Shown piece by piece: positions 3,001-9,000 of a stretch of 13,618 nucleotides of DNA. Location: IMG/VR virus record IMGVR_UViG_2690316086_000023, one strand, 5' to 3'. This stretch comes from a virus (taxonomy: Duplodnaviria > Heunggongvirae > Uroviricota > Caudoviricetes). Position 1 is the first letter of the stretch. Each line of letters begins with the position of its first letter. The position numbers were made by a program.

Positions 3001-6000
3001 GCGACATCCTTCTCTTTCATGTACTCCAGCATTACGGCGTTACGTTCTGCTTCATAACTTTCGCTGTACTTACGGAGTTCTACTGACATCCAGTTAAACG
3101 CATTGATATAGGCTTCTTTAACAGCATCGGCTTTTGCCCCGTTAAATCCCATAACCAGCATAACGAAGCCACTAAAGTCCATGCGGTAGTAAATCTGTTT
3201 CTTGTCAAAAATACCTAAGTCATTGATTTTCTCGACGGCCCAAAAATGGGTTGTCGAGAATTCCTCAGAACATCTCAAACATTTAATAGCCCTAATCACA
3301 TGCTGATGGCGTTTACCAAATGCCCTGGCAATCTGGAAGGTGTCAGTTACCGGTTGACCTTCTGCTGCGGTAACTAACTGGCGAAAGTCGAAGTCATGAT
3401 TCGCAATTAATTCATTCATGGCGTTGCCTGCTTCTTTGAAATGAACCTTTGCCGCACAGGAAACCAGCCCACCGAGGCTCGCCAGCACTAACTGGTATCC
3501 TCAAAGGCCCATTCCAAAGGGTCAGGTTCGGTGTTTATTGTGCGCTGCGGTGCGCGGTGAAATACCGGTACAAAAATGCCCCGCATCTGCGAGGCATTTT
3601 CCTGAAAGTCACTTGTTAAATTTCAGTGAAATTAAAATTATTTTAAGCACTGCGTCCTGATGTATTCCTGCAGGTAGTTAACCTGCGCGGTTATCTTGTC
3701 GATTCCACCTCGGAGACGGTAATAATTGAGTTCAGCATCTGCTGTAAGTCCTGGGCTTTCTCCATCGCCCATGCTGCTGGCTCCGGTCGTTGACTTTGCA
3801 CAGGTGGCGGAGACTTGCAGGCGCTTACGACCAGCAGAAACATCAGCACGGAGACTTTCGATAGTCGCGTTAGCATCAGCAAGTTCCTTTGTATATCTTG
3901 CGTCGAGTTCTGCTACATCACGTTGACGCTTCTGCATATCAGCGATGATGGATGTGGCTTTATCGCGCTGCTCTTTGTAGGCGATGGCGTTATCACGGTA
4001 ATGATTAACAGCCCATGACAGGCAGACGATGATGCAAATAACCAGAGCGGAGATAATCGCGGTTACCCTGCTCATTGCTGCCCCCACAAACAGACTTCAC
4101 GCTCAATATCACGACGGGTCATCAGCCCTTTCCATTGCTTACCGCCAGCGTATGTCCAGCGACGTAGCTGGTCACATGCGCCTTTGATATCACCCTGGTT
4201 TATTTTGCGAAGAAGCGTCGATGTTCTGAAATTACCAGCGCCCACGTTGTAAACGAACGAGTAAAGAGCGCCGCGCGTTGTTTCCGGTATATCGACTTTG
4301 ATGTACGGGTTAATTTGTCTGGCGACCGTGGCAAGGTCTTTATTCAGGAGGGCTTTGCATTCTGCTTCGGTATACGTTTTACCGGGAATGATGTCTTTTC
4401 CGGTGTGTCCGTGACATACAGTCCATACGCCAACGATATCTTCGTATGGTATGTAGCTGACACCTTCCAGGCCATCGTCACCACTCGGACCAGTGATGAG
4501 CACAGACGCTATGGCAACAGCCCCACCACCAATAGCAGCAGCAACAGCCTTGCGTAATGATGGCGACATTATTCACCTCTCGCAGCCTTACGCTTATCTT
4601 CTTTAATCTTGAAATAAAGGTTTGTCAGATACGTCAGCAAGCCAAACACCAGGCTACCCAATACGCCTATTGCCACCCACTGGGATGGGGAGACTTTGTC
4701 CAGCAACTGCAGTAGCCAGTATCCCGTCCCCACCACTGACGTGGTGTATGACACACCTGTTGTTATTTTTTCCATCTGGTACATACCCCGTCTCCCGTTA
4801 TCCGGAAGCTGACAACAATAAAAAGCCACCAGTTAATTCCTGATGGCCCTGATGCATAAACGTCATAATACCTGACTGTTATGATTGACAATAATGATAA
4901 TGTTTATATAGAAAGGTTCCCGATGTGTGTTACATATCATTTCTCCACGGGGAATATCCCCACGCCAGCGCAGACTCTTTTACCCGTTCTCTTCTGCGCT
5001 GGCTCTTTTTTATTATGCTGCTGCATTTACCTCTGGCACCATGCTTTCTATCTCAACACAATACGTGGTACTTCTTGTAACCAATATCATAACGATTAAT
5101 CGACATAGAATTTCTCCCGTGTACAGGAACAGAGTTAAAAAGCCGGAACCGGAATCAAATCACAGGATGACCATCTGCCAGTGGCAGGTCATAAAAAAAA
5201 GGCCGCGCCATGCGCAGCCAGAACTCACAAGGAAAATGATAGAAGGAAATAACATTAGTGATGTACGCATGGCGCCTCCCGCTAAGTTCTGCAATGATCA
5301 AACAGAACTCGCTACGTGCCCTTAAAACTCGATCATTTAGCCCCTCCAAGGAGGATTCACCATGCGGTTGATTTTTTAATAAACAGTAAACAAAAAAGTC
5401 AAGAATTATTCATTCTGTTCTTTCATCATCGGCCACAGCAATACCACAATGCCGCAGACCAGAGCGCCATCAGTCAGTACCAACATTATCCTGCTGGTGA
5501 AATCCATCATCACCATCACTAAAAGCAGGATCACAACAGCAAGCAGACACAGTTTATAAAACAATGTTCAGAAAACGCATTCAGCATGCCTAAGGTTCTA
5601 TTCCTACGAATAGCCAACTTGCAACTTAAAATATTATTTATGCAGCCAATTAAATTCTGGTCCTTACAATATCAACCTGAAGATTCTTATCTTGTGCTGA
5701 TTGATAAATGACAAACCTTTTACTACCTGCATTGAAAGAAGTAGACAAAACCAGACAATTATCATAACGAGCAAGAACATAATACCAACCATCATTATAA
5801 TTAATCATTTCATATTCTTTCTTAAACTGTGGTTTGTAATATCCTGTCAGAAATGAAAAAAGCCAGAAATATGCCACAAAAGCAATCATCACAATCTCAA
5901 AAAAATGTTTTTTTATAAATGGCTTATCATAGAAGCATGATACCGATAAAAATCGCCCATAAGATCTTATCGAAATTGTAACCGCCAGCGCAATCGCTGC

Positions 6001-9000
6001 TGACAGTAGCAAAAGAGGTACCTGAATCTTCTGTCTCAATATAGAAAACTCAATAATTGCCGGCACAAACAATAATTCCACAGCAAAATAAAGGCGAAAT
6101 ACATTTAGCTCTTGCATAGAATGTTTTCTTTTCACTGCGAAAAAGAATACAACACCAATACCCCAACCGATAAGAAATATAGCAATGACGATAACTGCAA
6201 AAAATAAACTTCTGGCAACATCATCAACACCTGCACCTACAATCCACCATGGGAAGCCGTAGTAAAAAGAAGTACCCCATCCATAGAAATAAGCACTCCC
6301 CCATCCAAGGCATCCCATGTAGGCAATAAAAAGTGAAGAACTCCTGAGCAGCGCACCATCCTTCATAACCCCCCCAATACAAGATGATAACATTGGCTTA
6401 CAACTCATAACAAAAGCAATTCAATGCCGTCAAGAGGTTACAGGCTAAAAAAACTCTATTACATAGCAGCCAGCATGTTTACCGTACAAGTACAACTCAG
6501 GGCATAAAAAAAACCCACTCGGCAGCGGGTTTATACATTTTTTACAACATACCAAATTTGCATGAAGTATATGGCTTTTAATCCAGTTTTGCAATATTTT
6601 GCTGTAAAAATGCTGCCTTTTGTTTTGAACGTGTTTTCGTCACAAGCAATAAAGCATCACTATCAAGCTGTAGAAAAATGTGCTTCATTGCAACCCAGCG
6701 TTCAGTAAATGTCTCGGACCAGTTTTTTGTTGTCACTCCCACCAATGATGCCAGTGTCTGGTATTCATAGGCCTCACGCCCTGCAAGTTCGCTCTTCACA
6801 TCCTGTGCAGCCAGCCAGATTAACGTCTTCAGGCGATCCAGTGTCTTACCTGCAATTTTTCTGTTACTTAACAAATCTTTAAACTCGCTCCATGCCCATT
6901 GCGTTATGGTGACCTGATGCCCCCATCGAACGCTTTCGCTGTAACACCAAAGCAACCATGCTTTCTGATGTTCATCGAGAGACAAAACCGCGCGGCGCCA
7001 TGAAGAGGTTGAGAATTCAACCGGGCTGACCAAAGCAATGGATGAACCTTTTGCGTACGACTGCTTACCGGAAGTCGGCGTATTATCCAGCGTAATCATC
7101 TTGCCAGTTACCACATCCAGAATGCGCGGCTTCTTTCGTTTGTATGTACCAGTATCAAATTGTGCATGCTCCTGCCAGGCTTCGAGCTGGCCTTTCGTTG
7201 CTCCGTTCAAGTCAGCAGTAGCTGCCATAAGTTGCTCACGAACATACTGTAAATATTGGGTATTCATGCAGTAAATCCTTTCTATATTTTGGCATAATTC
7301 TTCAACATTCGGTAATCGTTCAAAACCGAATCGGGGAAACGACATAAGCACAGGAGCCCCCAGCGACAGCGAAGGAGTTCTGATATATAAGACTCAGACA
7401 TCATTCATTCCCCGGTTCTCCAATATCTGTTTCACTCATCATCCATAACTACCTGTAATTGCCCCCCCTTTTTTTGTAACAGTTCTTATATTGCTATATA
7501 GAATAGCCATTACTAATGCATTTAAATTTAATAAAATAAAAATTATAAAAACACAAAACACCACGCAAACACACTTAATAAAAACACCGTTACATTAAAA
7601 GATAATAAAAACAACAATAAAAAACGAATAAATCAATTGTCTCACGCAATTATAAAACATCATATTGATTACGCACCTTGTATTACAAACTCATGTATGT
7701 AAAATACGCGCACCATTCAAAAAAAAGGAAGACAATAACATATGAAAAAAAGTGTCATCGCTGGCGTCTTTATTGCTCTGTCATTTACCACGTGTTCAGC
7801 TATCGCGAACAGCCTTGCATTATCATTAGCAAATGATGATGCAGGGAAGTTTCAACCAATACTTAATGATATTTATGGCAATAAACATGAAAACAGAGAT
7901 GATTACTCACAAGGCTTATTTCTGGGATATAGCCACGATATCTCAGACTCGAGCCAATTATCTCTCCATATTGCGCAAGATATTTACTCTCCATCAGGCA
8001 GTAATAAAAGACACAACACAGCTGTAACTGGAGACAGAGCTTTTAGCGCATACACTCACACTGGTATTGAATGGAACTCCCTTGCGAATGACTGGATTCG
8101 CTATCGATTAGGTACTGACATAGGTGTTGTTGGCCCCGACGCAGGCGGTCAGAAAGTACAAAATAAAGCTCATGAGATTATTGGGGCAGAAAAATATCAT
8201 GCATGGGATGATCAAATAGAGAATCGCTACGGTTATACTGTAAAAGGGATGCTATCCATGACACCAAGTATGGATATTTTAGGTGCTAATGTTGGATTAT
8301 ACCCTGAAGTTTCTGCTGTTACTGGAAACTTATTTCAATATGTAGCATATGGCGCAACCATTGCCATTGGTAATGATAAAACCTTCAATTCGGATAATGG
8401 CTTTGGTCTGCTGGCTCCCCGTGGTTTAATGCATATGTCCGATACAAGCGGATTCAAATACAAGATTTTTGCAGGTATGGAAAGACGAGATGTCAATCGC
8501 AACTATACTCTCGAAGGAAAAACAATACAGACGAAACAAACAACAGTATCGCTAAACAAAACTGTTGATGAATATCAAGTTGGCGCAACAATTGGGTATG
8601 CACCTGTAGCCTTCACACTAGCATTTAATAAAGTAACATCAGAATTCAAGACAGGGGATGACTATTCATTTATAAATGGAGCAATCACCTTCTTTTTTTA
8701 ACTGAATTGAATTCAATCAAAATAACATAAGTCCAACAAAAACATAAAGTGCGAAATGAATGCTAGCTCCATTTATTTCGCACTATAAAAGATTAAAAGT
8801 TGCAATAAAATAATAAAATGACTCAGTTACGAAAACCAATAAACTGTGGCCAGTAGTGAGTCGCTCATCATCGGGCTTTTTGGCGAATGAAATTTAGCTA
8901 CGCTTTCGAGTCTCATGCGCCTTCTCCCTGTACCTGAATCAATGTGAGGTTTCCGCAGAACACTGCGCCAGTATCGATATACATCTGGTTGGCAAATTTG

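Follow-up and report, generated by a model that had tools for sequence, protein, structure and literature searches.

A probable cluster of three accessory units, encoding a TfpB/STM1630-family membrane protein, a DUF3927/TciB-like peptide and the small RNA PasD1, between Q and the lysis genes of a lambdoid prophage

The DNA stretch analyzed here (the window) comprises the 13,618 nucleotides of IMG/VR virus record IMGVR_UViG_2690316086_000023 (Caudoviricetes), and this work concerns the interval between its gene Q and its lysis genes. Our analysis suggests that this interval, i.e., the moron slot downstream of the late promoter pR' and the terminator tR', probably harbors a cluster of three separately evolved accessory units, arranged as in phage 434, CP-933K and prophage PP4 of enteropathogenic Escherichia coli (EPEC), in a Q82-type lambdoid prophage; this degree of confidence applies jointly to the whole three-unit explanation. 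The first unit would be a TfpB/STM1630 inner-membrane protein whose gene has a sigma-70 promoter of its own, used in the lysogen, the second a DUF3927/TciB-like peptide probably co-transcribed with it, and the third the Hfq-dependent small RNA (sRNA) PasD1, expressed from its own promoter and apart from the other two. A first-pass annotation had read the interval as one self-contained unit closed by its own terminator; the data do not support that view but point to three units, the terminator belonging to PasD1, which is probably promoted separately. The protein, the peptide, the sRNA and their layout are all already catalogued or published; the whole is a real lysogenic-conversion cassette, ordinary and known in kind.

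The window covers the part of a lambdoid prophage devoted to late regulation and lysis, whose late genes all lie on the minus strand. Reading in the direction of late transcription, one meets LpxR (encoded on the opposite strand), YlcG, Q, the cassette, an S21-type holin, a SAR endolysin and Rz (coordinates in Table 1). Over window positions 5100-6700, E. coli O103 ML775 is 100% identical, while prophages of O157:H7 and O55:H7, which adjoin the effector genes nleB2/nleC/nleH/nleD or EspJ/NleG, show ~99.8% identity; the same block was found in phage 434 (OL657226), in phage 2B8 and in the EPEC E2348/69 prophages PP2 and PP4. The idea, already put forward in the first-pass annotation, that the Q-to-S slot holds AT-rich accessory cargo is supported by several findings: the GC content of the membrane-protein gene is 36%, versus 45% in Q and 50% in the lysis genes; a promoter-like site precedes the gene and a terminator (5201-5219, that of PasD1) lies downstream; and the EPEC copies are transcribed in lysogens. 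Moreover, in phage 434B the whole Q-to-lysis block, including the membrane-protein gene, is replaced by DLP12 DNA, which from what is known of K-12 we take to be devoid of a TfpB-like gene, and plaques are still formed. The region non-homologous to 434B measures ~4.6 kb according to the annotation of the 434 record, and ~5.5 kb were replaced according to the paper describing it.

As for the first unit, the open reading frame (ORF) at 5650-6408 (-) encodes 252 aa from its most upstream ATG, the length assigned to it at first. The ORF, its approximately five transmembrane (TM) helices and its aromatic N-terminus were correctly recognized, but translation most probably begins at the third ATG (6366), which gives 238 aa. 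Indeed, a G7 run (6369-6375) that may serve as the Shine-Dalgarno site ends 2 nt upstream of it, the equivalent residue begins every full-length homologue in the alignment, and the resulting 717 nt correspond to the EPEC annotation and to one of the two RefSeq annotated starts (the alternative found in O157/EPEC records being 744 nt); furthermore, ATG 6408 falls inside the promoter-like -10 and ATG 6393 lies ~5 nt from the expected transcription start.

No family had been recognized for this protein or for the peptide in the first-pass annotation, but both can be assigned. The membrane protein belongs to the PF27470 TfpB/STM1630 family: the identical protein in RefSeq is named 'STM1630 family protein', CPT_434_68 of phage 434 is identical to it, and PF27470 (named TfpB) is carried, as precomputed cluster labels, by all 108 clusters found in 5.8 billion proteins, including the identical-sequence cluster P0001. 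In PHROGs it falls into PHROG 1521, which has no assigned function. A Salmonella homologue (P0074) shares 46% identity over 100% of its length (E 1e-70) and is STM1630 itself, since a published deletion primer encodes its residues NSSMLLAYLGGLGWG; its gene measures 717 bp. The Moraxella 'protein tfpB' (P0245) was matched with E 1e-73 by a profile of sequences distantly related to the window protein. The window protein itself shares the family architecture (~240 aa, an N-terminal AY.YG.G...YYG(F/I)P, five hydrophobic helices and a C-terminal beta domain), as seen in alignments, hydropathy and the AlphaFold model. The 52-aa two-helix peptide, noted earlier as a possibility, proved to be a true DUF3927 member: PF13064 matches residues 7-50 of its 52 with 53 bits against a gathering cut-off of 25 (E 3.4e-14), PHROG 1470 'TciB-like' matches it with E 2.5e-17, and the phage 434 annotation calls it TciB.

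Hydropathy and the AlphaFold model agree on five long helices in the membrane protein. Its best-conserved part is the aromatic, glycine-rich N-terminal segment AY.G.LGWGSAYFYGWG.SFYYGFPWW, with 13 aromatic residues within positions 12-45. A first AlphaFold model from a shallow alignment was unusable (predicted local distance difference test, pLDDT, 58.8); the one obtained from a 36-sequence alignment (pLDDT 72.4, predicted template-modeling score 0.59) contains a five-strand C-terminal beta domain at residues 184-235, predicted to be small and SH3-like. Lysine and arginine residues are concentrated in the loops 77-88 and 138-154, a distribution that favors an N-in, C-out topology in which the beta domain would be periplasmic. 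No active-site-like His/Cys/Asp/Ser pattern is conserved across a wide alignment, and no fold, PDB-sequence, NCBIfam or PADLOC relative of the protein was found: the PDB-sequence profile search was empty, 25 family members scanned locally against Pfam and NCBIfam (E up to 5) showed no weak family that recurred, and PADLOC at E up to 0.1 gave no match for the membrane protein, the DUF3927 peptide or the small ORF.

The third unit is the sRNA gene. Window 5193-5365 equals NC_011601 1060260-1060432 without mismatch over 173 nt, and these are the coordinates that Pearl Mizrahi et al. (2021, PMC8550237) gave for PasD1 of EPEC E2348/69, PasD2 being located at 741157-741328, with a 717-nt and a 159-nt gene preceding each of them. 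In both EPEC prophages the DUF3927 ORF is annotated by RefSeq; it is missing from the PP4 gene table of the same paper. The complement of their Northern probe is present exactly in the window; they also reported the seed, the homologue EcOnc13 in enterohemorrhagic E. coli (EHEC), and Northern blot and RIL-seq data on the Hfq-dependent expression and the target pairing of PasD in EPEC. The window RNA folds into a long 5' stem-loop, a single-stranded seed CCUUGUGAG (5224-5232), a terminator hairpin (5201-5219) of 8 pairs, 7 of which are G-C, and a U8 tail (5193-5200). The terminator with a T8 tract that had been placed at 5193-5219 as the closing element of the moron is thus present, both as hairpin (5219-5201) and as T run, but it represents the 3' end of PasD1; the hairpin is kept in related loci, with one stem position alternating between G-U and A-U.

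Zhu, Shabalina and Storz (bioRxiv 10.64898/2026.05.13.724894) regard PasD and STnc100 as diverged relatives; they report that over 98% of PasD genes have Q and LpxR within 10 kb and that PasD adjoins the holin operon, often with Esr41 nearby. The window is in agreement with this picture: PasD1 lies downstream of Q, near LpxR and next to the holin operon, and in an Rfam scan STnc100 (RF02076) matched full-length at 5190-5395 with 37.7 bits (E 3.9e-6), which is below the gathering score of 47 and marks a relative, not a member. Other TfpB loci do contain true STnc100 matches, scoring 81-146 bits.

Between PasD1 and the holin gene, the Esr41 model matched end to end at 4924-5013, on the opposite strand, with 32.3 bits (E 0.001), far below gathering; this candidate contains a GCCAGCG...CGCTGGC hairpin with a T run, aligns partly with PasA, and would fit the 'moron CDS plus convergent sRNAs' layout described earlier downstream of pR', including Sp3 (Tree et al. 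2014). Two small ORFs annotated or predicted at this site deserve a comment. RefSeq places a 132-aa hypothetical protein (WP_012578864.1) at window 4927-5325 (+), antisense to PasD1 and overlapping the Esr41-like element; no family matched it. Its EPEC counterpart E2348C_1013 has a high, Hfq-dependent read count (2064), which most likely reflects PasD1 reads, and the coding sequence is probably spurious. A 36-aa hydrophobic ORF, MRTSLMLFPSIIFLVSSGC..., with a GGAGG site at 5160-5270 (-) was considered as a small toxin or lipoprotein and rejected, since it is located within PasD1 and since in phage 434, phage 2B8 and PasD2 a 1-nt indel shortens it to 14 aa; at the same site phage 434 annotates a different, 62-aa frame as 'putative membrane protein'.

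Concerning transcription, a candidate pR' overlaps the Q stop codon and is followed by a tR'-like intrinsic terminator, at the same place where the phage 434 record annotates one. The own promoter suggested at first, with its -35 TTGACG at 6428-6433, is supported as a promoter-like site: CTTGAC, TG and TAT are conserved in seven divergent loci (prophage, plasmid and island) whose flanks are otherwise unalignable, the CTTGAC being invariant; among these loci are a plasmid of enterotoxigenic E. coli (ETEC) and a Stx-like prophage, in both of which the gene has no pR' upstream. What the promoter scan called was an overlapping alternative, TTGTTA-18-TATCAT (6413-6384). The sequence TTGTtatgagTTGT at window 6401-6414 (-) overlaps the promoter-like -10 and corresponds to a CII-type TTGY-N6-TTGY mark in the phage 434 record; as a CII-binding site it was rejected, being a pattern match without support that may be due to chance. 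Furthermore, pR' followed by the tR'-like terminator (window 6502-6594, -) would give a leader RNA of ~50 nt, perhaps a short transcript of the StxS type; the one match in this region, to STnc240, was weak (28 bits, E 0.15).

Expression was assessed from the published RNA-seq of uninduced EPEC E2348/69 lysogens (all values are DESeq2 base means), whose two prophage copies encode a protein identical to that of the window. Under activating conditions the PP2 values are lpxR 2936, Q 69, TfpB-like gene 226, DUF3927 37, pasD2 11017, esterase 102, holin 3.5 and endolysin 3.2, and those of PP4 are Q 6.0, TfpB-like gene 147, pasD1 8652, holin 5.4 and lysozyme 3.9; under non-activating conditions PP2 gave lpxR 89, Q 43, TfpB-like gene 120, DUF3927 27 and holin 1.1. 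By our arithmetic the TfpB-like gene reaches, per base, ~10-50 times the level of the lysis genes and, in PP4, ~20 times that of Q, its base mean resembling those of tolB and uvrB, and the excess over the lysis genes argues that it is transcribed in uninduced lysogens. The two coding genes show alike per-base reads (226/717 vs 37/159), so that their co-transcription is likely. PasD1 and PasD2, calculated in the same way, exceed the coding genes ~200-fold in reads per base, which speaks in favor of a promoter of their own; a promoter-like site for PasD1 can be read 8 nt upstream of the published RNA-seq 5' end (window 5365).

Based on these data, the following scenario can be proposed. In the lysogen, the membrane-protein gene, probably together with the DUF3927 gene, would be transcribed from its own sigma-70 promoter, and PasD1 from its own; the PasD1 terminator would stop all transcription unmodified by Q, so that the lysis genes would remain silent. 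After induction, Q-modified polymerase starting at pR' would pass both tR' and the PasD1 terminator and proceed into S-R-Rz, as expected from the established biology of Q.

A different organization might be imagined, in which one transcript starting from 6433 spans the membrane protein, DUF3927 and PasD genes down to 5193, PasD1 being a processed 3' untranslated region (UTR). 3' UTR-derived sRNAs are common, the scan found no terminator-like site between the stop codon at 5650 and position 5219, and the two coding genes, probably co-transcribed in view of their similar per-base reads, must end at the PasD terminator. However, the ~200-fold abundance of PasD1 and PasD2, the TTGACT-18-TAAAAA just upstream of the published PasD1 5' end, and the arrangement of other TfpB loci all speak against it. 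In these loci the STnc100-type sRNA lies upstream of the TfpB gene (L097), or downstream and separated from it by tRNA and methylase genes (L101, L109), or is absent (on plasmids, in Salmonella and in Citrobacter), and this variation suggests that the sRNA and the TfpB gene are independent modules. The single operon is therefore, in our opinion, improbable. The DUF3927 gene, for its part, follows a TfpB-like gene solely in loci near-identical to that of the window.

A remaining question concerns the role of the membrane protein, on which the distribution of its family sheds some light. The family is tiny, with 72 matches among 1.84 billion representatives in the profile search, only ~20 of which are full length. 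Members were found in Citrobacter rodentium, Cronobacter, Klebsiella, Yersinia, Shigella and Neisseria, as well as in Actinobacillus, Gallibacterium, Avibacterium, Pasteurella, Mannheimia and Haemophilus ducreyi, and all those whose organism is identified (named members and fetched loci) are animal-associated, belonging to Enterobacteriaceae, Pasteurellaceae, Neisseria and Moraxella. In E. coli, 692 of 5426 complete genomes carry the gene, with a median of two copies, and in 679 of the 692 the allele is at least 99% identical. In all comparisons, within prophages and among Salmonella subspecies (whose homologues show dS values of 0.6-0.8), dN/dS is 0.05-0.2, which indicates that the protein is functional in both settings.

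The contexts of the gene are heterogeneous. In several prophage types (the window and the P0046 loci) it directly follows a Q82-type Q; in a Stx-phage-like late region the order is Q, methylase, tRNAs, STnc100, TfpB, an AgvB-like gene (opposite strand), LpxR, PmrD, NanS and holin. The C. rodentium and Salmonella homologues share a chromosomal site beside adh, a methyl-accepting chemotaxis protein (MCP) gene and a LysR gene; on the other side lies sseJ in Salmonella, and in Citrobacter an LpxR that is divergent and frameshifted. Plasmid homologues (those of ETEC plasmids with heat-labile toxin (LT) or heat-stable toxin b (STb), of Klebsiella and of Shigella; L092-L096, L107-L108, L119) are overall 54-59% identical to the window protein and always lie between insertion sequence (IS) elements: in the ETEC plasmids the gene is divergent from eltAB with STb nearby, the Klebsiella plasmid also has STb, and 106 Shigella plasmids of ~185-230 kb, the size of pINV, carry a homologue of 57% identity with IS elements on its flanks. 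A further copy stands beside iroBC and a Bor remnant (L101), with a tR'-like terminator still upstream; the H. ducreyi gene lies between rpoH and mqo, that of Mannheimia between glnB and a YadA-type adhesin gene, and Moraxella tfpB is flanked by type IV pilin genes. Thus, virulence neighbors recur (LpxR, PmrD, LT, STb, SseJ, iroBC, pilin genes and the Shigella pINV). No conserved operon partner of the family was found, the neighbors differing in every lineage, which suggests that the protein acts alone.

Published data on STM1630 also bear on this question: the gene is bound by H-NS, its expression occurs both within macrophages and in medium that induces SPI-2, and pagD, pagK, ugtL, pqaA and lpxO belong to the same gene set; attenuation of its mutants was reported in calves and chickens, replication inside macrophages increases when it is deleted, and hypermotility was found in one screen. 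Taken together with the animal association of the family and the recurring surface and virulence neighbors, these data make us lean, with slightly less than even confidence, towards a non-enzymatic envelope protein serving the bacterial host during animal colonization.

The membrane protein, alone or with the DUF3927 peptide, might instead act at the inner membrane in superinfection exclusion or abortive infection, as the first-pass annotation had proposed. An inner-membrane protein expressed in the lysogen, which is what the EPEC reads indicate for this prophage-borne gene, has the usual profile of Sie-type proteins (SieA/SieB, HK97 gp15, T4 Imm), and no rival function has been demonstrated for the protein. 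On the other hand, we found no positive evidence for such a role: the PADLOC defense models gave no match, homologues sit at non-phage chromosomal sites in Salmonella, Citrobacter, Pasteurellaceae, Neisseria and Moraxella, being stable there (the Salmonella subspecies copies having diverged to the dS values given above, at a site common to C. rodentium) and lying amid housekeeping genes in H. ducreyi and Mannheimia, and STM1630 is induced with SPI-2 in macrophages, where phage attack is an irrelevant pressure. The proposal is hence somewhat disfavored, and we regard it as unlikely.

A bolder idea, to which we assign a small probability, lower still than that of exclusion, is that TfpB/STM1630 represents an unrecognized class of pathogen-associated inner-membrane envelope factors, forming one module with its neighbors LpxR and PasD and remodeling the envelope or its lipopolysaccharide (LPS) during colonization. 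If this were true, it would explain why the gene travels with LpxR, PmrD, toxin, effector, adhesin and pilin loci across enteric, Pasteurellaceae, Neisseria and Moraxella pathogens. Finally, that the gene encodes an ordinary late-operon protein, made only after Q action and involved in lysis timing or virion release, would fit its position between Q/pR' and the holin gene and its orientation like the late genes, but this is very improbable given its transcription in uninduced EPEC at ~10-50 times the per-base level of the lysis genes, its location within a block missing from the viable phage 434B, the lack of any holin, antiholin or spanin match in Pfam or PHROGs and the occurrence of plasmid and chromosomal homologues with no lysis genes nearby.

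Some points weigh against the reading that we prefer, i.e., three units with a lysogen-expressed envelope protein serving the host. In the promoter-like site of the membrane-protein gene, the -10 (TATGAG) departs from the consensus at its last position, which should be T, and the scan tool passed over this site. The RNA-seq levels could partly reflect leak-through of tR' by unmodified polymerase from pR', and, since Q lies upstream of pR', the difference between the Q and the TfpB-like values is compatible with such leakage; moreover, the reads are not cleanly assignable between the two identical EPEC copies. The read-through in the lytic phase is a step that we infer by analogy. As to the function, the STM1630 phenotypes are modest and conflicting (mutants attenuated in animals but replicating better in macrophages, with hypermotility seen in a single screen), and the linkage of the family to virulence cargo may be due only to a shared moron hot-spot.

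The neighboring moron LpxR, a lipid A 3'-O-deacylase activated by Ler/Pch, whose reads in EPEC rise from the lower to the higher of the two values given above under virulence-activating conditions, deserves separate mention. The sequence CTCACAAGG at window 7906-7914 (+) is the exact complement of the PasD seed; the site, CUCACAAGG, lies in the LpxR codons ..DDYSQGLF.., and the 8-mer CTCACAAG occupies 7906-7913 within lpxR, a third copy of this 8-mer being found at 9071-9078 (-) in a phosphatase gene. In the EPEC RIL-seq data, PasD2::E2348C_0684 chimeras map to the lpxR site corresponding to 7906-7914, and E2348C_0684 is an LpxR identical to that of the window; it is thus possible that the sRNA of the cassette may regulate the neighboring moron. 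LpxR adjoins a TfpB-family gene in three arrangements, out of ~9 contexts: divergent with Q in between (window, 434, EPEC); convergent in the Stx-like prophage (L097-L099), where one of the three loci also has PmrD next to LpxR; and directly divergent, although frameshifted, in the C. rodentium chromosome (L100). This adjacency is suggestive, and it could be the effect of a hot-spot.

The prophage is a decayed element that carries effectors. A NleG-family type III secretion system (T3SS) effector is encoded at 582-1214 (-; PF06416, E 1e-41) and a further small ORF at 1-411 (-), both downstream of degraded tail-fiber remnants. At 10913-10977 there is a perfect hexanucleotide tandem repeat, (AAATAG) x 10.8, read as FLFLFL... 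within an 85-aa minus-strand ORF (10778-11035) and located between an HNH-endonuclease gene and a 590-aa ORF. The latter (11294-13066, +), on the opposite strand and adjoining IS1203 in the source genome, has no Pfam match and is annotated in O103 as a hypothetical protein; it may be further cargo, possibly an effector.

Table 1. Features of the Q-to-holin interval and its surroundings (window coordinates)
Feature	Position	Strand	Basis
S21-type holin gene	4569-4829	-	Gene order
Candidate convergent sRNA, PasA/Esr41-like, between PasD1 and holin gene	4924-5013	+	Esr41 model
PasD1 sRNA gene, 173 nt	5193-5365	-	Identity to published E2348/69 gene
PasD1 promoter-like site: TTGACT (5397-5402), 18-nt spacer, TAAAAA (5373-5378)	5373-5402	-	Putative; read from sequence
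CDS of 52-aa DUF3927/TciB-like two-helix membrane peptide	5406-5564	-	PF13064, PHROG 1470
CDS of 238-aa TfpB/STM1630-family inner-membrane protein	5650-6366	-	Family, alignment, AlphaFold, hydropathy
Promoter-like site of membrane-protein gene: -35 TTGACG (6428-6433), 18-nt spacer, extended -10 TGtTATGAG (6404-6412)	6404-6433	-	Motif conservation
tR'-like intrinsic terminator, ~30-50 nt downstream of candidate pR'	6511-6532	-	Terminator scan
Candidate late promoter pR', TTGCAA-17-TATACT, overlapping Q stop codon	6566-6594	-	Putative; consensus scan and position after Q82-type Q
Q82-type Q, PF06323	6578-7351	-	Pfam match
Lipid A deacylase LpxR, neighboring moron	7742-8701	+	Pfam LpxR

What is mildly new in this work is the LpxR adjacency in three independent contexts, which is suggestive, the broad carriage of the family on virulence elements, and the identification of the 'moron terminator' as that of PasD1. 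The last point also holds a lesson for annotation, in that a presumed moron terminator may be an sRNA gene. A defined function for TfpB/STM1630 would add one more lysogenic-conversion factor to the prophage repertoire of EHEC and EPEC, and might tie the membrane protein to the adjoining LpxR/PasD module.

Among known systems, the closest to the membrane protein is STM1630 of S. Typhimurium, which has the same length (238 aa), aromatic motif, five TM helices and beta domain; both genes are AT-rich, horizontally acquired and next to virulence cargo, STM1630 lying beside sseJ and steB. Unlike the window gene, however, STM1630 is chromosomal and not in a prophage, has an unrelated promoter ~200 nt upstream of its start codon, and belongs to a set regulated together with SPI-2 and PhoP-activated genes, whereas the EPEC copy is transcribed similarly in both conditions. 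TfpB of Moraxella bovis/lacunata, the founder of PF27470, is likewise a stand-alone gene of the same Pfam family, but it is a distant relative of 261 aa, with copies of the type IV pilin gene on both sides and no prophage around it; identity to the window protein is 20-29% for relatives from Pasteurellaceae and Neisseria. The peptide resembles TciB/DUF3927 of phage P1 in its Pfam and PHROG families, its size (~50 aa) and its two hydrophobic helices, and PHROGs files the TciB family under 'moron, auxiliary metabolic gene and host takeover'. In P1, tciB belongs to a tciA-tciB-tciC group that includes a TerB-like protein, whereas here the DUF3927 gene comes after a TfpB-like one and most other TfpB loci lack it. 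PasD1 is identical in sequence to its EPEC namesake, with which it shares the seed, the terminator and the neighbors Q, LpxR and holin. Lastly, the classical Q-to-S morons (stx, LT-II, nmpC, lpxR) and the layout of Tree et al. 2014 have in common with the window the slot downstream of pR', a promoter-like site, a terminator that should let only Q-modified polymerase through, a shift in base composition and convergent flanking sRNAs; the cargo differs, being here an inner-membrane protein and not a toxin, a porin or an outer-membrane enzyme.

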